DNA from: an uncultured Nocardioidaceae bacterium
GTDB lineage: Bacteria; Actinomycetota; Actinomycetes; Propionibacteriales; Nocardioidaceae
NCBI GenBank assembly: GCA_964385195.1
Contig: CAYLOC010000001.1
Span: forward strand, 1 to 46,757
DNA length: 46,757 bases
Reading direction: 5' to 3'
Shown here: positions 1 through 41,453 of the stretch, piece by piece
Layout: the number at the start of each line of letters is the position of its first letter
Position numbering within the stretch: position 1 is the first letter of the stretch
Made by a program: the position numbers and the translations under genes
Notes under the pieces: generated by a model
What the model saw: the letters and a program-made list of their open reading frames with translations, nothing else
Databases searched by the model: none
What the model was told of the DNA's origin: nothing

Positions 1-92
1 GACCCCCGCGTGGGGACCCGCTCGGAAGTTGAGTTTCAGGTTTCGGACGCAACATCGCTTCAGCGGCCGGTCACCACGGGTAGGGCAGAGGT

Positions 93-1745
93 ATGGGCTT
101 GGTGAAGCCCGGCTGGGTCCTGCGCTCGGCCCGGCTCTACTGCGGAGACCCCCGGCTCCGCGTTGCTGCGACGTTCGCGCAAGGCAACGAGTGGTTCCCG
201 CCCGTCCACCGATCGCAGGTCAGTCGCTGGGAGAACGGTGACATCGCACCATCGCTGGACCTGGTCCGGCGCTATGAGTCCGTCTGCGGGATGCCACCCG
301 GACAACTGGTGAGCGCGATCGACCTCGTCAACCGAGACGAAGAGCCGTTCCGTCCCGGGCCCACACTTCGCCGCCCCCCGAGCGAGGACCGCTTCGACAT
401 CGCAGAGGCAACACTGCACGCCGCCATCACGGACGCGCCCATCAGCGGAGACAACTGGGATGCACTATCGGCGCTGCTGGGACAGAACCCCACCACGCTG
501 CTGCTCGATGAGCATTGGGAGAAACTCATCATCCGCGGACTACAGGAGATGGACGTCAGCGTCGGGCTCGCCTACCAACAACGATCGGAGGCCATGGCAC
601 GCATCGCGAGCCACCCACGCGCCGCCCCCCGAGTGATCTCGGTCGTCCGTCGGGTGCTCGGCGATCCGGCAGCCCAGGTCTACAGCGAGGCCGCCGCCCT
701 GCTCCTGTGCTGCCCCCATCACGACGCCGGCGCCGTCCTGGCAGCGTCCGTGCGTGACCCGGTCAACGAGAACGCGCTGCGCGCGGCGCTGTTCAGCTCC
801 GCGGCACTGCTCCGACGCGGACGTGCGTCCAAGGAGGTGGCGGTGGACCTGGTGCGTGCCGCGCTGCAGCACTGCAGGGACGAGAGCATGACCTACCGGG
901 TACGTCGCGCCGCTGCGGACCTGCTCCTCGCGCTGGACACGACCACGAGACGCCGGCTTTCCGCCACCTTGCGCTCCGACGGTGCCGAGGAGGCCATCGC
1001 CTCGATCGTGCACGGGGACGGGCCGCGGCCGTTGCAGCTGCTGCGAGGGCTGCGACACCGCGTCCGGCAGCGGTTGACCCACCAGCTCGGGCCACGCCTG
1101 GAGGAGGAAGAGCCGTTGCTCCGGCTGGTCGACCACATCACGGTCGAGACCAATGACGAGCAGCGCGGCAAGACGTTACAGCTGCTGATGCTGCTTCCGT
1201 TCGGGCCTGCCGTCGGGCGGGCCTACCTGGCCGAGCTCAGGGAGGCGCTGGCCCAGGGCGACTCGTTGAATGTCCACGAGGCACTGAGCATCCTGTTGTG
1301 CTTGACGCCAGCCGACTCGACCGAACCGGTCGCCGACGTGGCCGTACGGTCCTGTGCCGTTCCCGACGATCCCGATGAGTTGGCCGTGGAGGCGTGCTGG
1401 GCGCTGGGGAATGCCAAGTTCACCCCGGCAACGGACAGCGAACGGACCATCGAGCGGGTCCGGACCGCCGTCGTCGAGGTCCTCGACGGCGACCGGACCG
1501 CGTCCGTGCGGCTGCTGGAGGGATGGGGGTATGTGTTGGGGATCCGGGGAGCGTACGACGTCCTCGAACACCTCCCTCCGAACGGCCATGTCGCGGAGGC
1601 CTGGGAGCACACCCGACGCTGGTGGCTGGACCTCCCCCCTGCCCTGCGGCACGCAGCCACCGAGGACCACGCCCGGATCAGCCCCAGATCTCCTCGGCGG
1701 TCTCCACCACCAACCGCAGCTTCGCGATCTGCTCATCGACGCTGA
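93..1745 (+). CDS. XRE-type HTH protein with long helical-repeat (HEAT/ARM-like) C-terminal region, function unknown
   Basis: 550-codon ORF from ATG 93. The N-terminus (VHRSQVSRWENGDIAPSLDLVRRYESVCGMPPGQL) looks like the recognition part of a Cro/XRE HTH. The rest is Leu/Ala/Arg-rich helical repeats with no catalytic motif I recognise. The last ~23 codons overlap the convergent gene 1678-2799 and look like antisense read-through, so the 3-prime end is uncertain. Confidence 0.5.
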   Translation: MGLVKPGWVLRSARLYCGDPRLRVAATFAQGNEWFPPVHRSQVSRWENGDIAPSLDLVRRYESVCGMPPGQLVSAIDLVNRDEEPFRPGPTLRRPPSEDRFDIAEATLHAAITDAPISGDNWDALSALLGQNPTTLLLDEHWEKLIIRGLQEMDVSVGLAYQQRSEAMARIASHPRAAPRVISVVRRVLGDPAAQVYSEAAALLLCCPHHDAGAVLAASVRDPVNENALRAALFSSAALLRRGRASKEVAVDLVRAALQHCRDESMTYRVRRAAADLLLALDTTTRRRLSATLRSDGAEEAIASIVHGDGPRPLQLLRGLRHRVRQRLTHQLGPRLEEEEPLLRLVDHITVETNDEQRGKTLQLLMLLPFGPAVGRAYLAELREALAQGDSLNVHEALSILLCLTPADSTEPVADVAVRSCAVPDDPDELAVEACWALGNAKFTPATDSERTIERVRTAVVEVLDGDRTASVRLLEGWGYVLGIRGAYDVLEHLPPNGHVAEAWEHTRRWWLDLPPALRHAATEDHARISPRSPRRSPPPTAASRSAHRR

Positions 1746-2799
1746 GCCGGTTCCCCTCGACGGTGGAGGAGAACCCGCACTGCGGAGACAGGCACAGCTG
1801 CTCCACCGGCACGTACGTGCTGGCCTCCTCCACGCGACGCTTCAGCGTGTCCTTGTCCTCCAACGCGGCGGTTTTCGTCGTCACCAGGCCGAGCACGACC
1901 TGCTTGCCCTTCGGCACGAACCGCAACGGCTCGAACCCGCCGGACCGCTCGTCGTCCCACTCGCAGAAGAAGCCGTCCACCTCCAGTCCCGAGAACAGCG
2001 CCTCGGCCACGAACTCGTACCCGCCCTGCGCCACCCAGGAGGAGCGGAAGTTCCCGCGACACATATGCGTCGTGACCTGCATGCCCTCCGGGCGCCCGGC
2101 GAGCGCGGCGTTGATGTTGGCGACGTACTGCTCATGCTGATGGTCCGGATCACCCCCCTGCGCCGCCACCATCGCCCGCTGCTCGGGGTCGTTGAGGTAG
2201 GCCAGGCTCGTGTCGTCCAGCTGCAGGTAGGTACAGCCGAGCTCACCCAGCCGATGGATCTGCTCGGCGTACGCAGCGGTGAGATCGGACCAGAAGCCGT
2301 CCAGCTGCGGGTACACGCGCTCGTCGATCGCTGCGCGTCCGCCGCGGTAGTGCACCATGTTCGGTGAGGGGATGGACAGCTTGGGAACCTGGTCGTCGCC
2401 GACGTGGTCGCGAAGGTAGCCGAACGCATCCGCGAAGATCGTCTTGCCCAGCCGGACCCGGTCGTGCACCGCCAGGGCGGCGGTCTCGAAGTCGAGGTCT
2501 CCGGCAGCATTGCGGAAGTGCACCTGCAGCGTCTCGTCGGTGCGGTCGATGCCGTCCAGGGCATAGATGAAGTCCATGTGCCAGGCGGTACGCCGGAACT
2601 CACCGTCGGTCGCCGACCGCAGTCCCACCGCACGCTGCAGCGCGATGACGTCGTCGATGCAGCGGTCCTCTACCTCCCGCAAGGCCTCGGCATCGATCTC
2701 GCCGGCCGCGTGGCGGGCACGGGCCTGGAGCAGGGCGGGCGGTCGAAGCAGGCTGCCGACGTGGTCGGCCCGGAACGGGGGAAGGTCACGAAGAGTCAT
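1678..2799 (-). CDS. cobalamin-independent methionine synthase (MetE C-terminal domain)-like methyltransferase family protein
   Basis: ORF 1678-3072 trimmed to in-frame ATG 2799 (MTLRDLPPFRADHVGSLLRPPALL, the typical N-terminus of the ~370-aa MetE-C-only family). Zn-ligand-like motifs THMCRGN and LSPQCGFSS are present. The 91 codons upstream are low-complexity. Confidence 0.85.
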   Translation of the reverse strand: MTLRDLPPFRADHVGSLLRPPALLQARARHAAGEIDAEALREVEDRCIDDVIALQRAVGLRSATDGEFRRTAWHMDFIYALDGIDRTDETLQVHFRNAAGDLDFETAALAVHDRVRLGKTIFADAFGYLRDHVGDDQVPKLSIPSPNMVHYRGGRAAIDERVYPQLDGFWSDLTAAYAEQIHRLGELGCTYLQLDDTSLAYLNDPEQRAMVAAQGGDPDHQHEQYVANINAALAGRPEGMQVTTHMCRGNFRSSWVAQGGYEFVAEALFSGLEVDGFFCEWDDERSGGFEPLRFVPKGKQVVLGLVTTKTAALEDKDTLKRRVEEASTYVPVEQLCLSPQCGFSSTVEGNRLSVDEQIAKLRLVVETAEEIWG

Positions 2800-2893
2800 G
2801 TCTTCCAACGTCTGCCCCGAAGCAGCCGTTGTCAACTCCTGTCCGGCGCGGTTGAGGCTGGTGGGACACTGGCCCCGGGAGGTGTGCAGCCAC

Positions 2894-3634
2894 ATGGAGC
2901 AGGGCCGGTCAGACGCCGGGACCGTCGACGAGCACACCGGCGCCATCGCCCGACCGGACGCACTGTTGGCGAAGGTGGCGGCGGCCCCGACGCGCTTCTG
3001 GGTCGGATGCCTGTTCGCGGTCCTCTTCGGGTGGGTGACCCTCGATGTGTTACTGACCGGGCCCCTCGTCACGTTCGACCACGTGGTGGAGTCATGGGTG
3101 GTCCATCACATCCCGCACGACGTCATCCTCACGATGCGACGCTGGGTGGTGCTGCCGGGGCAACGCCTGTACAACGTGCCACCGCTGGGCGTGCTGGCGG
3201 TCCTGGCCGCATGGCGTCACCGGCAGCTCCGGCCGATGGCCGTCCCGCTGGCGGTGATGGTGTTCCTGGCCGTCGTCGTGCCGGCGATGAAGATCTGGAC
3301 CGGTCGCACCAACCCGCTCAGCGGCGGGGACCACCTGTGGGCGGGCGGCACCGAGTACCCCTCCGGCCACGAGATCAACGCCATCGTGGTGTGGGGGATG
3401 ACGTTCCTGCTCGCGACCACGCTGTCCTGGCCGGTCGGTCGCTGGCTGACCGCCAGACGACGGGCGCTGCTGACCACCCTGATGGGGGTCGTCGTCGGTG
3501 GAGCGGTGGTCATCGCCCGTACCCACTGGCTCAGCGACGTGATCGCCAGCATCTTCTTCTCCCTACCACTGCTGTGGGCGATCCAGTGGTACGGGATGGT
3601 GCGACAGACATCGCCTGAAGGAGGCCCGCCATGA
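2894..3634 (+). CDS. PAP2-family membrane phosphatase
   Basis: ORF 2567-3634 trimmed to ATG 2894. Several hydrophobic spans. Motifs KIWTGRTNP / PSGH / ARTHWLSD approximate the three PAP2 acid-phosphatase motifs. Confidence 0.8.
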   Translation: MEQGRSDAGTVDEHTGAIARPDALLAKVAAAPTRFWVGCLFAVLFGWVTLDVLLTGPLVTFDHVVESWVVHHIPHDVILTMRRWVVLPGQRLYNVPPLGVLAVLAAWRHRQLRPMAVPLAVMVFLAVVVPAMKIWTGRTNPLSGGDHLWAGGTEYPSGHEINAIVVWGMTFLLATTLSWPVGRWLTARRRALLTTLMGVVVGGAVVIARTHWLSDVIASIFFSLPLLWAIQWYGMVRQTSPEGGPP

Positions 3635-13750: not shown

Positions 13751-13800
13751 GAGTTGTCAGAATCTGGGCACGCGATGGCGTGCCCAGATTCTGACAACTC
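13751..13800. repeat. 50-nt palindromic repeat, copy A (perfect 23-bp arms)
   Basis: GAGTTGTCAGAATCTGGGCACGC GATG GCGTGCCCAGATTCTGACAACTC. The arms are exact reverse complements. The outer 12 nt are shared with copies at 32246 and 36383. Confidence 0.9.
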
Positions 13801-31312: not shown

Positions 31313-31332
31313 CGGCGGCAGCCTCCTTCGTC

Positions 31333-31376
31333 GGGTTGTCAGGCCGTCGCCGGGTGAGGGGCCACAGTCTGACACC
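31333..31376. repeat. possible decayed copy (D) of the palindromic repeat
   Basis: GGGTTGTCAGG...GGCCACAGTCTGACACC keeps TTGTCAG at the left and CCAC..TCTGACA.C at the right. Length is 44 nt instead of 50 and the interior is unrelated. Confidence 0.25.
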
Positions 31377-31383
31377 ACGGAGC

Positions 31384-32238
31384 CTACGTCGAGAAGCGGT
31401 GCCCCGTCAGCCGCTCGTACGCCTCGACGTACCGGGAGCGCGTCTTCTCGACCACGTCCGCGGGCAGTTCCGGCGGCGGCGTGTCGGAGTGCCGGTCCCA
31501 GCCGGACGCCGGCGAGGTGAGCCAGTCGCGCACGAACTGCTTGTCGTACGACGGCTGCGGGCGGCCCGGCTCCCAGGCGTCGGCGGGCCAGAACCGCGAG
31601 GAGTCCGGGGTGAGCACCTCGTCGGCGAGTACGACGGTCCCGTCGGCCCGCCGACCGAACTCCAGTTTCGTGTCGGCGAGGATGATCCCGCGGTCCCGGG
31701 CGAGCGTCTCGGCGCGGGCGTAGACACGCAGGGTCAGGTCGCGGAGGGTGGCTGCGGTGTCGGCACCGACCGCGGCCGCTACGTCGTCGAAGGACACGTT
31801 CTGGTCGTGGTCGCCCTGCGCGGCCTTGGTGGCCGGGGTGAACACCGGCTCCGGGAGCCGGGACCCGTCCAGGAGTCCGTCCGGCAGCGGCACTCCGCAG
31901 ACGGAGCCGGTGGCCTGGTAGTCGGCCAGCCCGGACCCGGTCAGGTAGCCACGGGCGACGCACTCCACCGGGTACATCTCCAGCCGCTCACAGACCACCG
32001 CTCTCCCGGCGAACTCCCCGGGAACGTCCGCGGAGACCACGTGGTTCGGCACCAGATCGGCGAGCTCCTCGAACCACCACAGCGACATCCGGGTGAGCAC
32101 CGTGCCCTTGTCCGGGATCGGGGTCGGCAGGACGTAGTCGTAGGCGGAGATGCGGTCCGAGGCGACCATCAGCAGCCGCCCCTCGGCGTACTCGTAGAGA
32201 TCGCGCACCTTGCCGGAGTAGACGTGACGCACACCCAC
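31384..32238 (-). CDS. purC: phosphoribosylaminoimidazole-succinocarboxamide synthase
   Basis: Motifs [11 protein letters not shown] and [17 protein letters not shown] start 32238. Confidence 0.93.
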
Positions 32239-32245
32239 ACCCTAC

Positions 32246-32295
32246 GAGTTGTCAGACGTTGAGCACGTCATGACGTGTCCCACTTCTGACAACTC
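32246..32295. repeat. 50-nt palindromic repeat, copy B
   Basis: GAGTTGTCAGACGTTGAGCACGTCATGACGTGTCCCACTTCTGACAACTC. Lies 7 nt upstream of the purC start and contains the last 14 codons and the stop of the MMPL gene. Confidence 0.9.
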
Positions 32296-34357
32296 CGATG
32301 CCGGTGAGGGCGGTGACCGCGGGGACGAGGACGCCGCGGACCACGGTGGCGTCGAGCAGGATCCCGATCCCCAACGTGGTGGCCATGACCTTGACGTCGA
32401 CGGCCGGAACCGCCGACAACGACACGAACGCCAGGAACAAGATCACCGCCGCGCCGGTCACCAGCCGCCCGACCCGCCCCAGGCCTTCGACCACAGCCGT
32501 ATGCAACGACCCGGACTCGTCATAGGTCTCGCGCATGCGGGAGAGGAGGAACACCTCGTAGTCCATCGAGAGGCCGAACAAGAACGCGAACGTGATCAGC
32601 GGCACCCAGAACGTGATCGAGCCCAGCGCGTGGTACCCGAACAGCAACTGCGAGCCGAACCCGTCCTGCCAGATCAGGACCGCGGCCCCGTACGCGGCGG
32701 CGATCGAGACGACGTTGAGCAGCACCGCCTGCGCGGCCAACCGGAACGAACGAAACGCCCGAGCCAGCAGCACGAACGCCACAGCGGCCACCACGACCAG
32801 CAGCCAGATGATGTTGCTGTACAACGCGTCGACGGCGTCGACGAGCTGCGCGCCGCTGCCACCGACCCTGGCCCGGGGGAAGCGCTCGGCGACCACGTCC
32901 CGGACCGTGGCCAGCGTGTCCTGCCCGGCGTCGGTGCTGGTCTCGTGGCGCGGGAGGACATCGACCAGCGCCGCCGGGGCTCCAGCGGCGGTCCCCGTTG
33001 CGGGCGTCGCCGCGAACACGCCGTCGACCCCGTCCAGCGTCGTCGCGACGCGCTGCGGATCCTCGCCACCGGGGACGAGCACCTCGATGGGCGTCAACAC
33101 GCCGCTCGGAACGCCGGTCGCGGACAGGTGCTGTACGGCGACCCGCGCCGGGCCGTCTCCGGGCAGCGCGTCCGAGGGCGCGGTACCCAGCCGGATCGTG
33201 GTCGCGGCCACCACCAGCGGTGCCAGCACCGCCAACGCCGCACCCGCCGCGACCCACCGGTGCCGTACCACCAGGCCGGCCCATCGTGTCCACACCCTGC
33301 CGGTACGGCGTGCACCGCGGCCGCGGGCGCGGCGGCGCGGCCAGTCCACGCGCGGGCCGACTTTCGACAGCAGCGCCGGCAGCAAGGTCAGCGTCACCAG
33401 GACGCTGACCGCGGGGATCAGCGCGCCGGCGTATCCGACGCTGCGCAGGAACGGCACCGGTACCAGCACCAGCACCACCAACCCCAGGGCAACGGTCACG
33501 CCGCTGAACACCACCGACCGGCCCGCCGTGGACATGGCGACGCGGACCGCATCATCGTTGTCCCGGCCACGGCCACGTTCCTCCCGCCACCGCGTCACCA
33601 GCAGCAGCGAGTAGTCGATCGCGACCCCGAGGCCGATCAAGGCGATGAGGAACTGCACCAGGAAGCTCACATCGGTGAACGTGGTCAACCCGAGCACCGC
33701 AAGGAACGTGGACAGGATCGACACCCCGGCCACCAGCATCGGCAGCAGCGCCAGCAGCGAGCCGAACACGAGCGCCAACACCACCAACGCTCCCCCCGCG
33801 GCAACCAGGGTCTCCACGAGTACGCCGGTGCTACCGCCGGACTCCGCCGCCTGGGCGCTGAGCTGGCTTACACCGGTGACGCGCACCGTCGTACCGGCCG
33901 GCAGGGCCTGGTCCAGTCGCTGTTGCACCAGATCGGCCAACGACGCGTTCTGGTCGCCGGGTGGCGGGTAGACCAGCGCGAAGACGGTCTGCCCGTGGTC
34001 GGCGATGAACGCATCGTCACCGGTGGTAGAGGAGGAGACCACGCGCAAGCGCGGATCCTCGTCCAGACGGGCGAAGGCCTTGACGAGTGACGATCGGACC
34101 GCGGGGTCGCTCGCCGTGTGGTCTCCCGACAGCGTGACCACGGGCACGAGCGGGGTCGTGGGGCCGCCGGTGCCGTAGTGCCGCAGGATGGCGGTGTTGG
34201 CCTCGTAGCCGGGCTGGCCCGGGAAGCTGAACTGCGTCGACAGCCGATCGGTGACGGAGGAGGAGGCCGCTACGCCGGCGACCAGCACCACCGACCAGAG
34301 CACCACCACGAGCAGCCGATGACCGAGTACGAAACGAGTGAGACGCTGCATGCCCAT
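32252..34357 (-). CDS. MMPL-family (RND superfamily) membrane transporter
   Basis: 701 aa in two homologous halves. Each half has a hydrophobic cluster followed by TRWREERGRG / LLSRMRETYDE type motifs. The last 14 codons (GVVRSGTRHDVLNV) are encoded by repeat copy B. Confidence 0.9.
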   Translation of the reverse strand: MGMQRLTRFVLGHRLLVVVLWSVVLVAGVAASSSVTDRLSTQFSFPGQPGYEANTAILRHYGTGGPTTPLVPVVTLSGDHTASDPAVRSSLVKAFARLDEDPRLRVVSSSTTGDDAFIADHGQTVFALVYPPPGDQNASLADLVQQRLDQALPAGTTVRVTGVSQLSAQAAESGGSTGVLVETLVAAGGALVVLALVFGSLLALLPMLVAGVSILSTFLAVLGLTTFTDVSFLVQFLIALIGLGVAIDYSLLLVTRWREERGRGRDNDDAVRVAMSTAGRSVVFSGVTVALGLVVLVLVPVPFLRSVGYAGALIPAVSVLVTLTLLPALLSKVGPRVDWPRRRARGRGARRTGRVWTRWAGLVVRHRWVAAGAALAVLAPLVVAATTIRLGTAPSDALPGDGPARVAVQHLSATGVPSGVLTPIEVLVPGGEDPQRVATTLDGVDGVFAATPATGTAAGAPAALVDVLPRHETSTDAGQDTLATVRDVVAERFPRARVGGSGAQLVDAVDALYSNIIWLLVVVAAVAFVLLARAFRSFRLAAQAVLLNVVSIAAAYGAAVLIWQDGFGSQLLFGYHALGSITFWVPLITFAFLFGLSMDYEVFLLSRMRETYDESGSLHTAVVEGLGRVGRLVTGAAVILFLAFVSLSAVPAVDVKVMATTLGIGILLDATVVRGVLVPAVTALTGIGVVRSGTRHDVLNV

Positions 34358-34483
34358 GACGCTAGAAAGTCAGCGGCCGCTGCGGAATGTGGTTACCTGG
34401 CCGGTTCGCGGTAGGGAAAACCCGATGTCGATACGCCGGTAAGCACCCTGGTACGTCGCTGCCCCGCCCAGCATGATGAGGTC

Positions 34484-35767
34484 ATGAACGCCTTTCGTCT
34501 GTTGGCTCGTCTCTTGGCGCCGCTGGTGCATCGGCGTACCTGGATGATCACCGGCTCTCTGCTGCTCGCCATGGTCACCGGCACGTTCTGGTTCATCGTG
34601 CTGAGTGTCGGGGTCACGTTCGGTGCGGGCACGTTGCTGATCTGGGTCGGCGTGGTCGTCCTGGCGGGGCTGCCGCTGGTGTGGCGGTACGGCGCCCGGA
34701 TCGAGCGGCGGGTGGTGTGGGCCCTCCTCGGGGTGCCGATCGACCCGCCGTACCGGCCGCTGCCCCGTGGCTCGGTGTTCACCCGCGCCCGGGTGGTCGC
34801 GGCGGACCCGGCGACGTGGAAGGACCTGGCCTACCTGCTGCTGCTGTTCCCGCTCGGAACCGTGTGGGCCGCGATCACCCTCGCTTTCTGGGGGTGGGGA
34901 CTGACCCTGCTCACCACACCGGCGTACTACTACGCGTTACCGGAGGGAGGCATCGGGTGGCTGGGGCTGGACCGGATCGCGCCGCCGGTGGACAGCCTGC
35001 CGCGGGCGGTGCTCGCGTGTGCTGTCGGGGCGCTGCTCACGATCGCAGCGCCGTACGTCGTCCGCGGGCTCGGCCACGTATACGGCCAGGTGGCGCGGGG
35101 ACTGCTGGGTCCGACCCCCGGTCAGCGAGTGGCCAACGAGGCCGCGCGGTTGCGGCACAGCCGAGACCGGGCGGTGGAGGCGGCCGCCGCCGAGCGGCGC
35201 CGGGTGGAGCGGGACTTGCACGACGGAGCGCAGCAACGCCTGATCTCGGTGGCGATGGACGTCGGGCTGGCGCGGCAGAAGCTCGCCGCGGACCCGCAAG
35301 CGGCCGACGACCTCCTCCGCTCCGCCCACTCCGACGCGAAGCAGGCGATCGCCGAGCTCCGGGACCTCGCCCGCGGACTGCGTCCGGCCATGCTCGCCGA
35401 ACACGGGCTGGACGCCGCACTGTCCGCGCTGGCCGGGCGGTCACCGGTCCCGGTGGAGGTAGACGTCGACCTCGACCGCCGTCCGCCCGCCACGATCGAG
35501 GAGGCGGCGTACTTTCTGGTGGCCGAGGCGCTGACCAACGTCGCCAAACACGCCGCGGCCAGCCGCGCATGGGTCCAGATCTCCTGTGCGAGCGGGAAGG
35601 TGCGGATCGAGGTCGGCGACGACGGCGCTGGCGGCGCATCGAGCGTTCCCGGCGGCGGGCTGGCCGGCCTGGCCGACCGGTTCGCCGGGCTGGACGGGAC
35701 CATGGACGTCATGAGCCCACCCGGAGGACCGACCGTGATCCGGGCGGAGTTGCCATGCGGGTCGTGA
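34484..35767 (+). CDS. sensor histidine kinase (HisKA_3 / NarL-partner type) with multi-span membrane sensor domain
   Basis: H box LHDGAQQRLISVAMD, N box AEALTNVAKHA and G box VGDDGAGG. The N-terminal ~190 aa are strongly hydrophobic. Confidence 0.9.
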   Translation: MNAFRLLARLLAPLVHRRTWMITGSLLLAMVTGTFWFIVLSVGVTFGAGTLLIWVGVVVLAGLPLVWRYGARIERRVVWALLGVPIDPPYRPLPRGSVFTRARVVAADPATWKDLAYLLLLFPLGTVWAAITLAFWGWGLTLLTTPAYYYALPEGGIGWLGLDRIAPPVDSLPRAVLACAVGALLTIAAPYVVRGLGHVYGQVARGLLGPTPGQRVANEAARLRHSRDRAVEAAAAERRRVERDLHDGAQQRLISVAMDVGLARQKLAADPQAADDLLRSAHSDAKQAIAELRDLARGLRPAMLAEHGLDAALSALAGRSPVPVEVDVDLDRRPPATIEEAAYFLVAEALTNVAKHAAASRAWVQISCASGKVRIEVGDDGAGGASSVPGGGLAGLADRFAGLDGTMDVMSPPGGPTVIRAELPCGS

Positions 35768-36426
35768 TCTGTGAGGACTCGGTCCTCCTCCGTGAGGGGT
35801 TGACGCGGCTGCTTGCCGAGGGCGGCCACGAGGTGGTCGCGGCCGTGGGCGACGCCGATGCCCTGATGGCGTCGGTCGAGGCTGATGCCCCGGAGCTGGC
35901 GCTGGTCGACGTACGCCTGCCGCCGACCCAGACGACCGAGGGTCTCCAAGCCGCACTTCGGATCCGCGCCGAACACACCGACGTCGCCGTCCTCGTCCTG
36001 TCGCAGTACGTCGAGGAGCGCTACGCCGTCGACCTGGTCGGGGGTGGGGACCGAGGCGTGGGGTATCTGCTGAAGGAGCGGGTGGCCGACGTCACCGAGT
36101 TCCTCGACGCCGTGGAGCGGGTCGGCCACGGCGGCACCGCCATCGACCCGGAGGTGGTAGCGCAGCTGCTTGGCCGGCGGCGGCGGGGCAGCCCGGTCGA
36201 CGCCCTCACACCCCGGGAACGGGAGGTGCTGGGCCTGATGGCCGAGGGACGGTCCAACGGGGGGATCGCGGAGGAGCTGGTGCTGACGCTGGGGGCGGTG
36301 GAGAAGCACGTCAGCAACGTCTTCACCAAGCTGCAGCTGGACGACGTCGCGACCGACAACCGCCGGGTCCGCGCCGTCCTCCGAGTTGTCAGAAGTGGAG
36401 CACGCTATGGCGGGTCCCACTTCTGA
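35755..36426 (+). CDS. NarL/LuxR-family response regulator
   Basis: Found in the C-terminal part of track ORF 34681-36426. ATG 35755 overlaps the kinase stop by 13 nt. Receiver domain MRVVICEDSVLLREGL...LALVDVRLPP and LuxR HTH LTPREREVLGLMAEGRSNGGIAEELVLTLGAVEKHVSNVFTKL. The last 14 codons (RVVRSGARYGGSHF) are encoded by repeat copy C. Confidence 0.9.
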   Translation: MRVVICEDSVLLREGLTRLLAEGGHEVVAAVGDADALMASVEADAPELALVDVRLPPTQTTEGLQAALRIRAEHTDVAVLVLSQYVEERYAVDLVGGGDRGVGYLLKERVADVTEFLDAVERVGHGGTAIDPEVVAQLLGRRRRGSPVDALTPREREVLGLMAEGRSNGGIAEELVLTLGAVEKHVSNVFTKLQLDDVATDNRRVRAVLRVVRSGARYGGSHF

Positions 36427-36432
36427 CAACTC
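36383..36432. repeat. 50-nt palindromic repeat, copy C
   Basis: GAGTTGTCAGAAGTGGAGCACGCTATGGCGGGTCCCACTTCTGACAACTC. 44/50 identical to copy B in direct orientation. Ends 3 nt before the purB stop codon. Confidence 0.9.
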
Positions 36433-36435
36433 GGG

Positions 36436-37857
36436 TTAGAGGATGGCCCCAGGGCGGTACGACGCGGCTTCCGGGTTGGCCGTGACCACGTCTTCAATCC
36501 GGTGGACGACGGCCGCGACCTGGTCGGCGGCAGCTCCGGTGAACGCCAGCGGGTCCGCGACCAGCGCATCCAGGTCGCCCCGCGTCAGCCCCAGCCGGTC
36601 ATCCGCGGCCAACCGGTCGAACAGGTCGTTGGTGTCCGCGCCCTCCTCGCGCATCCGCAGTGCGACGGCAACGGCGTGCTCACGGATCGCGCCGTGCGCG
36701 GTCTCCCGGCCCACCCCTCGGCGTACGGCGGCCATCAGGACCTTGGTCGTGGCGAGGAACGGCAGGTACCGGTCCAGCTCTCGTTGGACGACGGCGGGGT
36801 AGACGCCGAACTCGGCGAGCACGGTCAGCGTGGTCTGCAGCAGGCCGTCGGCGGCGAAGAACGCGTCCGGCAGTGCGACCCGGCGTACCACCGAGTCCGA
36901 CACATCACCCTCGTTCCACTGCGCGCCGGCCAGCTCGCTGACCATCGACAGGTGGCCGCGCAGCACGACGGCGAGTCCGTTGATCCGTTCACACGATCGG
37001 GTGTTCATCTTGTGCGGCATCGCCGATGACCCCACCTGGCCCGGCGCGAAGCCCTCGGTGACCAGCTCGTTGCCGGCCATCAGCCGTACCGTCGTCGCCA
37101 GGTCTGAGGGACCGGCGGCGCACTGCACGAGCGTGGAGACCACGTCGAAGTCCAGCGACCGTGGGTAGACCTGGCCCACGCTGGTGGCCACGCGGTCGAA
37201 GCCCAGGTGGTCGGCGATCCGCCGCTCCAGGTCAGCAAGGGACTCCGCGCCGCCGAGCAGGTCCAGCTGGTCCTGCGCGGTCCCCATCGGCCCCTTGATA
37301 CCGCGCAGCGGATACCGAGCGAGCAGGTCGTCAAGCCGCTGCAACGCGGCCAGCATCTCCTCGGCGACGGTGGCGAACCGCTTGCCGAGCGTGGTGGCCT
37401 GCGCGGCCACGTTGTGCGAGCGGCCGACCATCACCAGTGTCTGGTACTGCGTGGCCAGCTCGGCGAGGCGGGCGAGGGTGGCGACGAGGCGGACGCGGAT
37501 CGTGCGGAGCGAGTCGCGAACCTGGGTCTGCTCGACGTTCTCGGTGAGGTCGCGGCTGGTCATCCCCATATGGACGTGCTCGAACCCAGCGAGAGCGTTG
37601 AACTCCTCGATGCGGGCCTTCACGTCGTGCCGGGTGACCCGCTCCCGTGCCGCGATCGAGTCCAGGTCGACGTCGTCGATGTTCTTCTCGTACGCCGCGA
37701 CCGCCGCGGTGGGGACGTCGACGCCGAGGTCGCGCTGTGCCTTCAGTACGCCGAGCCACAGCTTGCGCTCGGCGCGGACCTTGGCCTCCGGTGACCACAG
37801 GTCACGGATCTCGGCGGAGGCGTAGCGGGCGGCGAGCACGTTGGGGATCGGCGACAC
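36436..37857 (-). CDS. purB: adenylosuccinate lyase
   Basis: Fumarate-lyase signature GSSAMPHKMNTRS. N-terminus VSPIPNVLAARYAS. Start moved to GTG 37857 (purine-rich GGGAGTAGGGGA upstream). Confidence 0.93.
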   Translation of the reverse strand: MSPIPNVLAARYASAEIRDLWSPEAKVRAERKLWLGVLKAQRDLGVDVPTAAVAAYEKNIDDVDLDSIAARERVTRHDVKARIEEFNALAGFEHVHMGMTSRDLTENVEQTQVRDSLRTIRVRLVATLARLAELATQYQTLVMVGRSHNVAAQATTLGKRFATVAEEMLAALQRLDDLLARYPLRGIKGPMGTAQDQLDLLGGAESLADLERRIADHLGFDRVATSVGQVYPRSLDFDVVSTLVQCAAGPSDLATTVRLMAGNELVTEGFAPGQVGSSAMPHKMNTRSCERINGLAVVLRGHLSMVSELAGAQWNEGDVSDSVVRRVALPDAFFAADGLLQTTLTVLAEFGVYPAVVQRELDRYLPFLATTKVLMAAVRRGVGRETAHGAIREHAVAVALRMREEGADTNDLFDRLAADDRLGLTRGDLDALVADPLAFTGAAADQVAAVVHRIEDVVTANPEAASYRPGAIL

Positions 37858-37975
37858 GTGACGATTGTCCCCTACTCCCGTGTGGGGTGGTAAGCGGTCC
37901 TGCGGCGACCGCAACCCGGTGACGACCGATCGGGGAACGACGCCCCGTCACCATCGTCCACCTGCACCCTGGCGG

Positions 37976-38009
37976 CCCTCCGCAGACAAGAACCCTCCGC
38001 AGATAAGAA
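37976..38009. repeat. tandem 17-nt direct repeat
   Basis: CCCTCCGCAGACAAGAA (37976-37992) is immediately followed by CCCTCCGCAGATAAGAA (37993-38009), with one mismatch. A looser third unit GAACCCTCGCGG lies near 38032. Confidence 0.85.
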
Positions 38010-38148
38010 GTGGGGCTGCGAGCGGCCACGTGAACCCTCGCGGTCTCTCCTCATGGCTCCCGATAGGGGTCCCCGGCTTGCGGCGACGAACGTCTTCCAA
38101 CAGTGATCCAGGCCGGTCGCCGGCGAACCCGCCGTCGTATGTCGTCGT

Positions 38149-38565
38149 TCAGCGGGACACCGGGTCGTCGGCATCATTCGATCCAGGTGCCACCTTGAGG
38201 TGTCGGTTGCGGGCGGCCATGGCCAGGTGGTCATCGAGGGTGGCCAGGGTGGACGCGGTAGTCAGGGCAGTGTCCAAGGCGCAGCAGTCGGGCAACTTCA
38301 GCCCGGTGTCCACTCGCAACGCGGCCAGTCGTAGCGGCTCACCATCGCTGTGGTCGGCAACCTGTAGTCCGATTGCGTGCAGGTCGGTAAGCATCTCTTG
38401 TCCGCGTCCTGCCCGGACGCCGCCGACGAGTACTTCGGCGAGGTTCACCGAATGGATGAGCAGCCGTTCGTCGCTGTGGTCACGCAGATACGCCGTGGCT
38501 GTCTGGTGGTGAAGGTCGCGCGGCCGTAGGTGAGCGATGACGACGCCGGCGTCGAGGGTGATCAC
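38149..38565 (-). CDS. vapC: type II toxin, PIN-domain ribonuclease VapC
   Basis: 138 aa. Acidic residues at the expected PIN positions (MITLDAG..., NLAEVL, PDCCALDTAL, LATLDDHL). ATGA overlap with the upstream small gene. Confidence 0.85.
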   Translation of the reverse strand: MITLDAGVVIAHLRPRDLHHQTATAYLRDHSDERLLIHSVNLAEVLVGGVRAGRGQEMLTDLHAIGLQVADHSDGEPLRLAALRVDTGLKLPDCCALDTALTTASTLATLDDHLAMAARNRHLKVAPGSNDADDPVSR

Positions 38566-38825
38566 TCAGGCCAGTCCCGGCGAAGCTCGGCCAGGTAGTC
38601 CTCGCCGAACACGTCGGCGTACTTGCCGCTGGTGGCGTCGATCGCGACGAGCCGGTTGTGGGCCGCCTCGGCACGCTCCCCCTGCAAAGCAGTGCTGCCG
38701 GCATGGACCAGGCGCAACAGCAGTTTGGAGCGTGATTCGTGCGGCCACCGTCGAGCCGCAAGGTCGAGCGCGTGCGCCACGTCCGGAGTTTCGGTGATCT
38801 GGTGGCGCGGTCGCGTGGTCGGCAT
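38562..38825 (-). CDS. vapB: type II antitoxin (VapB-like)
   Basis: 87-aa ORF directly upstream of vapC and overlapping it by 4 nt. The call rests mainly on position and size. Confidence 0.7.
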   Translation of the reverse strand: MPTTRPRHQITETPDVAHALDLAARRWPHESRSKLLLRLVHAGSTALQGERAEAAHNRLVAIDATSGKYADVFGEDYLAELRRDWPE

Positions 38826-38861
38826 GGCGCAAGTGTACCACTTTTAGCCTGGTGACCCACC

Positions 38862-39209
38862 TCATGGCATGACCTTTCCGCCCGCCCCATCGAGTGTGGT
38901 GCCGGTGATCCACGATGAGGAGTCCAAGGCCAGGAAGAGCGTGGCCGCAGCCACGTCGTTAGGCTGTCCGATGCGACGTAACGGAAACGCTTCGGCGAGG
39001 GCGCATCGCTGCTCTTCGGGGACCCAAGACCTCATGTGGTCGTTCTCGATCGCCGACGGCGCGAGGCAGTTGATGCGGATGCCGTCCGGTCCGTATTCGG
39101 CGGCGAGGTGCCGGCTGAACGCGATGACGCCGGCCTTGGCTGCCGGGAGGCGCTGGACCAGATCGAGCAGGGGCTCGCCGGGTACGGCGCGGGACCCACG
39201 TGAGCGTCG
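38862..39209 (-). pseudogene. remnant (C-terminal ~100 codons) of a short-chain dehydrogenase/reductase gene
   Basis: My own translation of the minus strand is open for 115 codons with no start: ...LPAAKAGVIAFSRHLAAEYGPDGIRINCLAPSAIENDHM...PLRRIGQPNDVAAATLFLALDSSSWITGTTLDGAGGKVMP*. This is the SDR region from the YxxxK helix to the C-terminus. The Rossmann fold is missing and the catalytic Tyr position is Leu. Confidence 0.6.
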
Positions 39210-41453
39210 TCAGCGAGCCTGACCACCTGCCGTGACGGGCACGCGCTCGTCGCCCTCGGCCGCTTCGTCTGCTGCGGCCGGTCCCGGACGCTGCAAGGCC
39301 TTACCCTCCACGTCCACGTGGGGCAGGACCCGCGCGAACCATCGCGGCAGCCACCAGGCGCCCCGCCCGGCGAGCACCAGCACCGCCGGCATGATGACCA
39401 TCCGCACGATGAACGCGTCGGCGAGTACGCCGACCGAGAGCGTGACCGCGATCGAGCCGACCATGGGGTTGGCGCTGCCGATGAACCCGGCGAAGACCGC
39501 GGCCATGATCGTCGCCGCGGCGACGACCACCGGCGCGGACCGACGGAAGCCGTCCACCACCGCCTGGGTGGCGTCGGCGCCGTGGACGTAGGCCTCCCGC
39601 ATCCGCGAGACGAGGAACACCTGGTAGTCCATCGCCAGGCCGAACAGGATGCCCACGGTGATGATCGGCAGCAGGCTCATCAGCGGTGCGGGCTGCGCCA
39701 CTCCGAACACGCTCGCCAGCCAGCCCCACTGGTACGTCGCGACCGCGGCACCCAGCCCGGCGCCGTACGACAGCAGGAACCCGATGGTTGCCAGCACCGG
39801 CACGAACAGCGAGCGGAACATCCACAGCAGCAACACCAGTGCCAGGCCGACGATCAACGCCAGGTAGACCGGCAGTGCGTCGGAGAGCTTGTGGTCGACG
39901 TCGACGTTGACCGCGGTGTGACCGGTGACGGCGACCTCCGCTCCGCCCACCTCTGACGGGTCATCGGTGGCGGCGCGGATTGCCGAGACCAGTTCGGTGG
40001 TCTGCGGGTCGGTCGGACCGCTCGCGGGGATCACGGTCACCAGCGCCGCGCTCCCGTCCGGGTTTGCCTGCGGCGGCGTGACCATGGCGACGTCGTCCAT
40101 GCCGGACACGGTGCGCGAGACCTGTTGTGCGGCGTCCCGGGCGTTGTCACCTTGCACGAGCAGCAGGAGCGGCCCGTTCGCGCCGGGGCCGAACCCGTCG
40201 CTGATCAGGTCGTAGGCCTGCCGCTCCGATGTGGCAGGAGCCGCGTCGCCGCTGGTCGGCAGGGCGGTCTGCAGGCTCGCAACCGGAACCGCCAGCGCCA
40301 CCAGCGCCGCGACGGCAGCACCGAGCGACAGCAATGGGTGGGATGAGACGCCGCCGGCCCATCGCGCCAGGAGGCCGGGACGGGTACGCCGACCGGTCCG
40401 GCTGCGGTGCCGGACGGTGGCTGCCCGGCGCTCCGTGCGGCCGAGCACGCGGTGACCGAGGGTCCGGAGCAGCGCCGGGACGAGCGTCAGCGCCACCAGG
40501 ACGGCGACCACCACCGTCCCGGACGCGGCCAGACCCATCTGGGTCAGGAACGGGATGCCGACCACGGACAAGCCTGCCAGGGCGAGGACGACCGTCGTAC
40601 CTGCGAACACCACCGCGGATCCTGCGGTGGCCACCGCTCTTCCCGCAGCTTCGGTGGGCACGTACCCGTCGCGCAGCTCGGAGCGGAACCGGGCGAAGAT
40701 GAACAGCGCGTAGTCGATGCCGACGGCCAGCCCCAGCATGACGGCGAGGATCGAGGTCGTCGACTGCAGGTCCAAGAACCCGGTCAGTGTGGTGATCGTG
40801 GCCGCTCCGATACCGACGCCGATCCCGGCGGTGAGGATGTTCGCACCGGCCGCCACCAGCGAGCCGTAGGTGAGCAGCAGGACGCCGAACGCGATGGCGA
40901 CGCCGACGAGCTCGGTGGGGCCGAGGACGTCCGGTGCCTGCTGCAGCGCGGAACCACCGACTTCCGTGCGCAGCCCGTCGGCGCCCGTGTCCGCGGCGAT
41001 GTCGTGGAGCGCGTCGATGGCCTGCGGGCTTACCGCTCCCTCCCCTGCGGAGAACGTCACCGTGGCCAGGCCGATGCGATGGTTGGGCGAGACCCGCGGT
41101 GCCTGCGGGTCGAGCGGGTCGGCGACGGAAACGACCCCGTGGACGTCCTCCAGTCGCTGCACTGCTTGTTGGACCAGCGCCGCGTTCTCCGGGTCGGTGA
41201 GCGACTCACCGGTCGGTGCCTGGAACACGACCTTGGCCTCGGCACCGGAGGCCGCCATGCTCGGGAACTCCTGGTCCAGTTGCTGCAGGGCCCGGGTGGA
41301 CTCCACCCCCGGGATCGAGAAGCTGTCCTTGGTCGGGCCGGAGAGGGTGGCGGCGCCGCCGGCGGCCAGGGCGAGCAGCACCACCCAGGCGGCGACGGTG
41401 ACGAACCGGTACCGTGCGCAGAACCGGCCGAGCCGGTACAGCAGCTGTGCCAT
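39210..41453 (-). CDS. MMPL-family (RND superfamily) membrane transporter
   Basis: 747 aa, two-halves architecture with ARFRSELRDG and LVSRMREAYVHG motifs. The start ATG overlaps the TetR stop by 1 nt. Confidence 0.9.
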   Translation of the reverse strand: MAQLLYRLGRFCARYRFVTVAAWVVLLALAAGGAATLSGPTKDSFSIPGVESTRALQQLDQEFPSMAASGAEAKVVFQAPTGESLTDPENAALVQQAVQRLEDVHGVVSVADPLDPQAPRVSPNHRIGLATVTFSAGEGAVSPQAIDALHDIAADTGADGLRTEVGGSALQQAPDVLGPTELVGVAIAFGVLLLTYGSLVAAGANILTAGIGVGIGAATITTLTGFLDLQSTTSILAVMLGLAVGIDYALFIFARFRSELRDGYVPTEAAGRAVATAGSAVVFAGTTVVLALAGLSVVGIPFLTQMGLAASGTVVVAVLVALTLVPALLRTLGHRVLGRTERRAATVRHRSRTGRRTRPGLLARWAGGVSSHPLLSLGAAVAALVALAVPVASLQTALPTSGDAAPATSERQAYDLISDGFGPGANGPLLLLVQGDNARDAAQQVSRTVSGMDDVAMVTPPQANPDGSAALVTVIPASGPTDPQTTELVSAIRAATDDPSEVGGAEVAVTGHTAVNVDVDHKLSDALPVYLALIVGLALVLLLWMFRSLFVPVLATIGFLLSYGAGLGAAVATYQWGWLASVFGVAQPAPLMSLLPIITVGILFGLAMDYQVFLVSRMREAYVHGADATQAVVDGFRRSAPVVVAAATIMAAVFAGFIGSANPMVGSIAVTLSVGVLADAFIVRMVIMPAVLVLAGRGAWWLPRWFARVLPHVDVEGKALQRPGPAAADEAAEGDERVPVTAGGQAR

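Follow-up and report, generated by a model that had tools for sequence, protein, structure and literature searches.

In a 46,757-nt stretch of DNA from an uncultured bacterium of the family Nocardioidaceae (contig CAYLOC010000001.1; this whole stretch is called the window below), a 4.1-kb block that encodes an MMPL-family transporter and a two-component system lies between the purine genes purB and purC, and each of its ends coincides with a copy of a 50-nt palindrome. Compared with the genomes of relatives, this block has been inserted into the purB-purC spacer; its three genes are a conserved module that is also present elsewhere, and its two joints, precise to the base, lie at the palindrome edges and cut off the ends of the two outer genes. 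As to the palindromes, they are unexceptional members of a large family dispersed in high-GC Actinomycetota, and a gene that lies between two palindrome copies is associated with this family. We give an even chance to the explanation that mobilization of a palindrome-cargo-palindrome unit, or else recombination mediated by the palindromes, put the three genes between purB and purC.

The window is high-GC actinobacterial DNA (~69% GC). From left to right, purC (SAICAR synthetase, Pfam SAICAR_synt; 31384..32238, minus strand) is followed by palindrome copy B at the left joint (32246..32295), the 3'-truncated gene of an MMPL-family transporter of the RND superfamily (Pfam MMPL; 32252..34357, minus strand), the genes of a sensor histidine kinase (HK; 34484..35767, plus strand) and a NarL/LuxR-type response regulator (RR; 35755..36426, plus strand), copy C at the right joint (36383..36432) and purB (adenylosuccinate lyase, Pfam Lyase_1 and ADSL_C; 36436..37914, minus strand, with the true start likely near 37857). 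Between B and C, the MMPL gene diverges from the HK-RR pair, and the region between them (34358..34483) presumably holds the shared promoter and operator of MMPL and HK. The transporter matches PF03176 in two stretches (E 5e-72), and the pair of MMPL domains across ~700 aa is present; the kinase combines PF13796 Sensor, HisKA_3 and HATPase_c, and the regulator Response_reg (REC) and GerE, as in NarL-type two-component systems. An exact-sequence database look-up of the MMPL protein returned no record, and its nearest full-length homologs have 61-63% amino acid identity.

A genome scan with PurC, limited to one genome per species, yielded 80 loci (best identity 77%; Aeromicrobium, Nocardioidaceae and Propionibacteriales), in which the gene order was read by tblastn with the proteins of the window. 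The relatives carry purB, purC and an acyl-CoA synthetase gene in the same order and on the same strand as in the window, and in ~25 of them purB directly neighbours purC, at a distance of 27 bp to a few kb. The gap measures 27-45 bp in L004, L008, L023 and L036 (27-160 bp when L001 and L204 are included), a few hundred bp in others and up to 4-9 kb in L014, L033 and L034, which contain other cargo. In the purB-purC gaps of these loci and of the three loci with the closest PurC in the protein database (L204, L205 and L206; 79-81% identity), no MMPL, HK or RR gene was found, and 1.5 Mb of relatives' purC loci contain no copy of the palindrome family; relatives without the palindromes lack the three genes at this position, and the proposal of a preliminary description that a cassette had been dropped into the purB-purC slot is borne out. 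The gaps of the three closest relatives are filled differently, namely with a 156-nt spacer including a ~135-nt different element that bears 26-nt terminal inverted repeats (L204, 9850-9996), with a PIN and PhdYeFM toxin-antitoxin pair (L205, 4785-5460), and with a 5.5-kb block consisting of a UvrA-like gene, an MFS transporter gene, an unannotated 201-aa open reading frame (ORF) and a DUF421 gene (L206, 4507-9939). The presence of different cargo in different lineages marks the purB-purC spacer as a slot of recurrent insertion, and the block in the window is one such cargo. No sibling strain and no empty-site allele was found in the databases, where purC has its closest match at 81% identity and MMPL, apart from locus L207, at 63%.

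Locus L207, a 4.8-kb metagenome contig, carries the same divergent MMPL/HK/RR module in another context, RR being followed there by DoxX and rhodanese genes. Its positions 3-3005 align by blastn with positions 33366-36380 of the window at 80.6% nucleotide identity over 3025 nt, the contiguous alignment crossing the MMPL/HK intergenic region, and the amino acid identities are 86% for MMPL (partial, with the first 329 residues visible), 81% for HK and 86% for RR. A further locus, L209, has the same divergent arrangement at 70, 64 and 75% identity, respectively.

The homology to L207 ends at 36380, 2 nt short of palindrome C, and at this point the two regulators part: RR ends with ...RRVRAAL-AYLDDRY in L207 and with ...RRVRAVL-RVVRSGARYGGSHF in the window, where the last residues are coded by the palindrome and the stop codon (36424-36426) lies within its far arm. 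The last seven native residues of RR are lost and the final GerE helix is partly replaced. At the other end, MMPL terminates with ...VTALTG followed by IGVVRSGTRHDVLNV, its last ~13 codons being read from palindrome B and its TGA stop codon (complement of 32252-32254) lying within the far arm of B. All full-length MMPL homologs (59-63% identity) and a distant paralog in the window run on with ...LxG-RWNWWLPxWxxRxLRVP... for ~35-45 residues that are absent in the cassette protein, in which palindrome-coded residues replace the conserved GRWNWWLPxWxxRxLRVP tail; apart from their replaced 3' ends, the MMPL and RR ORFs are intact. No remnants of the ~110-130 nt of the MMPL tail or the 25 nt of the RR tail were found beyond the palindromes, where only 7-13 nt and 3 nt, respectively, are left. 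Because the gene ends are lost and are not found on the far sides, the palindrome edges are to be regarded as rearrangement joints and not as simple repeat insertions into intact genes.

The overlap of both stop codons with the palindromes and the position of the purB stop codon, which begins 3 nt past C, had been described before and were confirmed in the sequence. The reported distance of 7 nt between the purC start and B holds for a GTG start at 32238, whereas it is 13 nt for the database gene call (282 aa, GTG at 32232). The view that the cassette is a self-contained unit is correct in that the divergent three-gene unit recurs in L207 and L209, but not with respect to the truncated MMPL and RR.

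Copies B and C are in the same orientation. As direct repeats they are identical at 44 of 50 positions, against 40 of 50 when one is inverted, and they have the non-Watson-Crick pairs 17/34 (A.C) and 18/33 (G.T) in common; a script reproduced all of these values and the coordinates given in the preliminary description. They are closer to each other than to copy A, which they match at 39-40 of 50 positions. Private mismatches are found at 12/39 and 15/36 in B, which has four non-Watson-Crick pairs in all, and at 20/31 and 24/27 in C, and the six differences between the two copies include a compensated change, pair 23/28 being T-A in B and C-G in C and A. Copy C with its flanks (36381-36434) represents the full family consensus, CCGAGTTGTCAGA...TCTGACAACTCGG.

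The pattern GTTGTCAGA-N20-36-TCTGACAAC matches three times in the window and not once in 100 shuffles. The third match, copy A (13751..13800), is nearly perfect, with 24 of 25 pairs formed, and a decayed fourth copy, D (CGGGTTGTCAGG...GTCTGACACCACG; 31328..31383), is also present. The four copies form a decay series in the free energy of the DNA hairpin, from A (-35.8 kcal/mol; 73.8 bits with the covariance model) over C (-25.7; 66.7 bits, E 2e-17) and B (-15.5; 51.8 bits, E 4e-13) to D (-12.7; 14.3 bits, E 0.04). Copy A is located between the divergent starts of genes for a DAO-type oxidoreductase (minus strand) and an NAD-dependent epimerase (plus strand), that is, in a promoter region and not at a gene end. 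Copy D fills the spacer between purC and the acyl-CoA synthetase gene (acs) directly 3' of the purC stop codon, and in relatives this spacer comprises only 16-24 nt. When the palindrome is subtracted, the spacers with A and D have sizes that are found in relatives without copies; in this respect, members of the family behave like insertions.

A metagenome scan with the pattern AGTTGTCAGA-N22-34-TCTGACAACT retrieved at least 120 contigs, and the matches listed are nearly all of 62-77% GC and mostly from soil. The anatomy of the family was derived from 92 copies, in which the arms GAGTTGTCAGA/TCTGACAACTC had been fixed by the search pattern. The arms are flanked by CC/GG in ~86% of these copies, the centre is CTATAG, and nearly all copies are 50 nt long. 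The 12 inner pairs are free to vary yet stay complementary: 90% of the cells are paired, versus 74% in shuffles and 32-40% in slid controls, the number of inner-stem cells with a double change is 299 versus 108, and the covariation score is 0.38 versus 0.11, neither of the latter two values being reached by any of 500 shuffles. G-T pairs make up ~4% of the cells, which is no excess over the random decay of perfect palindromes, and their rarity points to a constraint at the DNA level rather than at the RNA level. The inner stems are lineage-specific and common to many unrelated loci of similar GC content, as expected of amplification within genomes. Arm variants that have changed on both sides were observed (GAGTTGCCAGG/CCTGGCAAGTC in L206:13224-13283; GACTTG.../...CAAGTC in L119:2630-2682 and L125:32-81), and thus a scan with an exact pattern under-counts the family.

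In 63 copies both neighbouring genes were called, and the contexts are convergent in 30 cases, tandem in 26 and divergent in seven. Most copies are found 2-30 nt past a stop codon, and ~10% overlap ORF ends. An ORF that runs 44 nt into the palindrome occurs at only two of ~95 other stop-facing junctions, yet it occurs at both B and C. About 9% of the copies are centred in a longer, locus-specific inverted repeat that adds 6-13 further bp (L091, L095, L111, L184, L192, L199 and others); eight copies with at least six extra complementary bp were observed versus 0.18 expected, and it looks as if such copies had entered an already existing hairpin at its tip. Single family copies show no target-site duplication, and flanks that deviate from CC/GG tend to be complementary, not identical (L092 and L099). 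No T-tail was found at family copies, nor are they picked up by a simple scan for terminators. At gathering thresholds, Rfam had no match in the whole window, and in permissive mode copy A gave only sub-threshold matches to eukaryotic microRNA hairpins. The family is taxonomically broad: one of its bearers has a protein that clusters at 90% or more with Tenggerimyces flavus, a member of the Nocardioidaceae; in another, PurA is only 64-71% identical to the PurA proteins of named Actinomycetes genomes among the fetched loci.

The earlier statement that the cassette is delimited by repeats therefore holds for the joints, which are palindrome edges, but the repeats are not specific to the cassette, in view of the size of the family and of the decayed copy at the purC-acs junction. 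The family is apparently undescribed so far; literature searches on the arm sequence, on actinobacterial families of repetitive extragenic palindromes (REPs) or miniature inverted-repeat transposable elements (MITEs), and on DUF559 or AbiEi in combination with repeats retrieved nothing relevant. A full-length insertion sequence (IS) with the same ends was looked for and not found, and the isolated arms of L119 and L155 proved to be degenerate palindromes or matches by chance. The pattern scan also caught two unrelated things, a 54-nt palindrome, AGTTGTCAGATT...AATCTGACAACT, which occurs beside TACATTGTCAGA in low-GC contigs from the human gut (GC content ~0.4; L094, L096, L107, L142, L162 and L169), and tandem arrays of CAGTTGT-type heptamers (L120, L156, L158, L185 and L195).

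A gene of ~320 aa is located exactly between two palindrome copies, or abuts one of them, in ten family loci (L125:2196-3353, L168:98-1186, L170:1300-2451, L188:~206-1228 and L145:277-1371, and also L085, L117, L176, L193 and L201). In L125 and L168 the copies on its two sides are ~1.05-1.1 kb apart. Between its outer edges a unit spans 1.02-1.16 kb, with ~80 nt between the end of the upstream copy and the gene start, and with a downstream copy that overlaps the stop codon or follows within 26 nt. Homologs detected by tblastn and profile search have 40-68% identity and represent at least nine distinct lineages in 672 kb of family loci, and 1.63 Mb of control loci contained one weak match.

The N-terminal ~180 residues of the encoded protein match AbiEi models (PADLOC, E down to 8e-21). 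The C-terminal ~100 residues have sub-threshold matches to DUF559 at the same positions in three of five members (E 0.013-0.08) and weak PDB profile matches to the DUF559 structure 3HRL (E 1.0) and the nuclease PvuRts1I (E 0.9), and they exhibit the pattern ...LD...E-x-D-G-x-x-H...D...LR, in which D29, E43, D45, G46 and H49 are invariant (alignment A5). A PDB profile search with the whole protein gave only spurious matches to RNA polymerase alpha. No Y1_Tnp match was found in Pfam or NCBIfam, a plasmid search gave no match, and no AbiEii toxin gene lies next to the gene, which is solitary between its two palindromes. The literature searched contains no published description of a palindrome-flanked AbiEi/DUF559-like gene. 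The gene is a candidate for a trans-acting protein, or for the autonomous form, of the palindrome family.

These observations can be combined into a history in which MMPL, HK and RR would be three accessory genes that were transplanted as a unit into the spacer between purB and purC, an often-invaded slot in Nocardioidaceae. In one form, the 3' end of MMPL and that of RR would each have received a family copy, after which the two copies and the intervening DNA would have moved together as a palindrome-cargo-palindrome unit, analogous to the palindrome-gene-palindrome units, which offer a natural precedent. In the other form, the segment would have been joined in by recombination at palindromes. 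Either form would deprive the end genes of their native 3' ends and let their frames run into the palindromes as far as the TGA in the far arm. The palindromes, 50-54 bp long, would constitute a REP/TRIT-like family, the home arrangement of which would be palindrome, gene of an AbiEi-type winged-helix and DUF559/Vsr-like nuclease, palindrome. The most economical history starts with one copy in the 3' end of each of these two genes and continues with a joint move or with recombination; we infer from it the order of events, a causal role of the palindromes or of the associated protein in the joining, and the mobility of the whole unit of B, cassette and C. It can further be suggested, although only tentatively, that the palindromes and the associated gene make up an undescribed REP-RAYT-like system of Actinomycetota with a non-HUH enzyme, that any DNA between two copies might be moved or recombined, and that the MMPL-HK-RR genes would be a natural case of cargo capture.

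Several observations weigh against this history. The family as a whole prefers gene 3' ends, which are faced in 56 of the 63 contexts. The copy at the adjacent purC-acs junction indicates that this stretch collects palindromes independently. In L207, which has the module at another site, as the preliminary description had proposed to look for, the palindrome at the RR end is absent, and thus the palindromes are not intrinsic to the module; a second unit of B, cassette and C was not found at any other site. As B and C differ at six of 50 positions, any duplication must be old, or the two were never identical. Target-site duplications, which the preliminary description proposed to look for just outside the copies, are absent around B...C, the outer flanks of which share only CG, a part of the consensus, and complementarity of the outer or inner flanks was not found by inspection. 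The associated protein is a putative nuclease on the basis of sub-threshold matches, and the 47-kb window contains no homolog of its gene. Finally, the codon usage of the cassette, a further comparison proposed there, is not clearly foreign: the GC content at third codon positions is 0.875-0.90 (RR 0.875, MMPL 0.90) versus 0.905-0.94 in the pur genes, and the distances in relative synonymous codon usage are inside the host range, with a mild G3>=C3 shift only, so that the comparison of composition was uninformative about a foreign source.

A plasmid origin was rejected, as the plasmid search gave only generic HK-RR homologs (65-69% nucleotide identity), and so was a phage origin, with a single match to a viral contig. 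The window encodes a second, full-length MMPL protein at 39210-41453, 3 kb from the cassette, which keeps the WWLP segment near its C-terminus; with only 31% amino acid identity, the cassette MMPL is not a recent tandem duplicate of it. A second variable patch of lower GC content (0.658) lies directly upstream of purB (37915-39209) and contains a PIN/VapC-like ORF (38149-38565, minus strand), a small antitoxin-like ORF with atypical codon usage (38562-38825, minus strand) and an apparent C-terminal fragment of a short-chain dehydrogenase gene (38862-39035, minus strand).

The main rival of a joint move or recombination at the palindromes, a possible but rather doubtful one, is that B and C arrived later and independently. 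The module would have entered by an unrelated event, two copies would have hit the 3' ends of MMPL and RR afterwards, short adjacent deletions would have removed the remnants, and the bracket would be a by-product of local accumulation. The habits of the family speak for it, namely that most loci have the copy 2-30 nt from a stop codon and that ~10% of the copies overlap ORF ends, and so do copy D as an independent accumulation in this stretch and the high density of copies in some genomes (every 1-3 kb in L125, L176, L182 and L189). Some contigs have up to three copies in 3.6 kb, and the 47-kb window has four. The same orientation of B and C has a prior of one half and would also be expected from a strand bias of insertion, and B, C and D have decayed to different degrees. 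However, at least five events would be required, that is, the module insertion, two palindrome insertions and two deletions ending exactly at palindrome edges, and no remnants of either gene tail are left. Furthermore, the derived mismatches that B and C share, and their greater similarity to each other than to A, would be left unexplained. For three copies (B, C and D) distributed among ~28 intergenic junctions that include the 3' end of a gene, we estimate a probability of ~26/3276, or 0.8%, that both cassette boundaries have one.

It is improbable that the palindromes are hairpins maintained by the host and selected at operon boundaries, for instance, for bidirectional termination, for protection of mRNA 3' ends or as binding sites of the AbiEi-like protein, and that they had no part in the rearrangement. 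The enrichment of convergent and tandem junctions (30 and 26 versus seven divergent) would fit such hairpins, as would the identical hairpin formed from both strands and the compensated change at pair 23/28 that separates B from C and A. The TRIT motif of mycobacteria is likewise palindromic, bidirectional and found at stop codons (PMC3152330). With such hairpins, B would serve to insulate purC from MMPL, and the convergent genes RR and purB would be kept apart by C. Nevertheless, copies lack a T-tail and escape the terminator scan, copy A lies between two divergent gene starts, and copies B and D decay in place rather than being maintained. The small proportion of G-T pairs points to a constraint on DNA, the inner stems common to many loci indicate recent amplification, and the truncation of MMPL and RR would not be accounted for. 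Termination may well be a true description of the effect of the family on transcription.

Site-specific integration of the Campbell or integron type, in which a circular cassette with one palindrome would have recombined with a resident purB-purC palindrome and duplicated it like attL and attR, is very improbable: it would yield two direct copies, precise joints and no target duplication, its imperfect palindromes with shared unpaired positions resemble attC sites, and the removal of the cassette and one copy would leave a plausible spacer of 60-66 nt with a palindrome 3 nt past the purB stop codon, a typical family context, but no integrase or recombinase was noticed among the window ORFs (10 ORFs were scanned for families), recombination of this kind would be hazardous in the presence of hundreds of scattered sites, and the circular form would need a 44-nt overlap of MMPL and RR inside a single palindrome. 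The attC reading in particular was rejected on account of the order of the arms (GTTG...CAAC, the reverse of attC core sites) and of the structure of the cargo, three genes on both strands with a promoter region of their own.

If palindrome copies are the joints, accessory genes of the chromosome could be moved into housekeeping operons without an integrase or transposase in the cargo. The cargo in the present case is a regulated exporter of the MMPL class, which is involved in the export of envelope lipids and in drug tolerance of actinobacteria. The insertion splits the ancestral purB-purC pair, and purC is now downstream of a transporter gene and behind a hairpin, which may have rewired the expression of purine genes. 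The family itself, with a dedicated gene flanked by its copies, an inner stem that compensates, and 13-bp arms kept across lineages in which PurA is only 64-71% identical, is a candidate for a new genome-structuring element of abundant soil actinobacteria. In metagenome-assembled genomes, it could readily be used to mark 3' ends and hot spots of rearrangement.

Several known systems share features with the palindrome family and its presumed cargo. The core sites of integron attC run RYYYAAC...GTTRRRY. The arm order of the palindromes is reversed in comparison, and the cargo consists of three genes on two strands, in contrast to the promoterless single ORF of an integron cassette. Elements of the IS200/IS605 type also have imperfect hairpin ends in the same orientation, no target duplication and a constraint on the DNA hairpin with few G-T pairs; they differ in that no TnpA or TnpB gene is associated with the present family, its hairpins are symmetric on both strands, and no conserved tetranucleotide target was seen at its copies. 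In composite units flanked by MITEs, such as integron mobilization units and MITE-bracketed integrons, two small non-autonomous repeats bracket the cargo, and the enzyme is presumed to act in trans. The arrangement of two repeat copies around cargo without mobility genes is the same here, whereas target-site duplications are absent, a DDE transposase parent was not found, the repeats are single perfect palindromes without distinct ends, and mobility is putative.

AbiEi proteins bind inverted repeats, and Dy et al. reportedly described them in 2014 as the antitoxins of type IV AbiE systems. The N-terminal region of the palindrome-associated protein resembles these antitoxins, but the protein has an additional DUF559-like domain at the C-terminus and no adjacent AbiEii toxin gene.

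A further system is the Tuberculosis Rho-independent terminator (TRIT) of Gardner et al. (2011), a bidirectional palindrome with 147 copies in M. tuberculosis, which has a tight placement at the stop codon, in many cases with an overlap into the end of the coding sequence; it was reported as restricted to Mycobacterium, without an associated gene or a role in rearrangement (PMC3152330). By description, both are palindromic, bidirectional actinobacterial motifs with many copies that are tied to stop codons, but most copies of the present family are found 2-30 nt after the stop codon, versus about -8 for TRIT. The TRIT model did not appear among the Rfam matches.

The concept of REPINs and their RAYT genes has been described (PMC3116915, PMC3337134), and a survey of REPs lists no actinobacteria (PMC3733652). 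The REP/BIME and REPIN-RAYT elements of Enterobacteria, Pseudomonas and Stenotrophomonas are, like the present family, short extragenic palindromes with many copies, mostly at gene 3' ends, with lineage-specific stems next to a conserved part and with an associated gene flanked by repeats. The present family differs in consisting of one perfect 50-nt palindrome with a conserved outer stem of 13 nt, where a REP has 20-40 nt or forms a doublet, in having neither a GTAG nor a CGTC head at either end, and in the associated protein, which combines an AbiEi winged helix with a DUF559-like domain, whereas RAYT is a Y1 HUH transposase. RAYT genes are likewise said, in work of Nunvar from 2010, to be flanked by REPs, and according to Shyamala et al. 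in 1990, REPs reportedly are join-points of chromosomal rearrangements.

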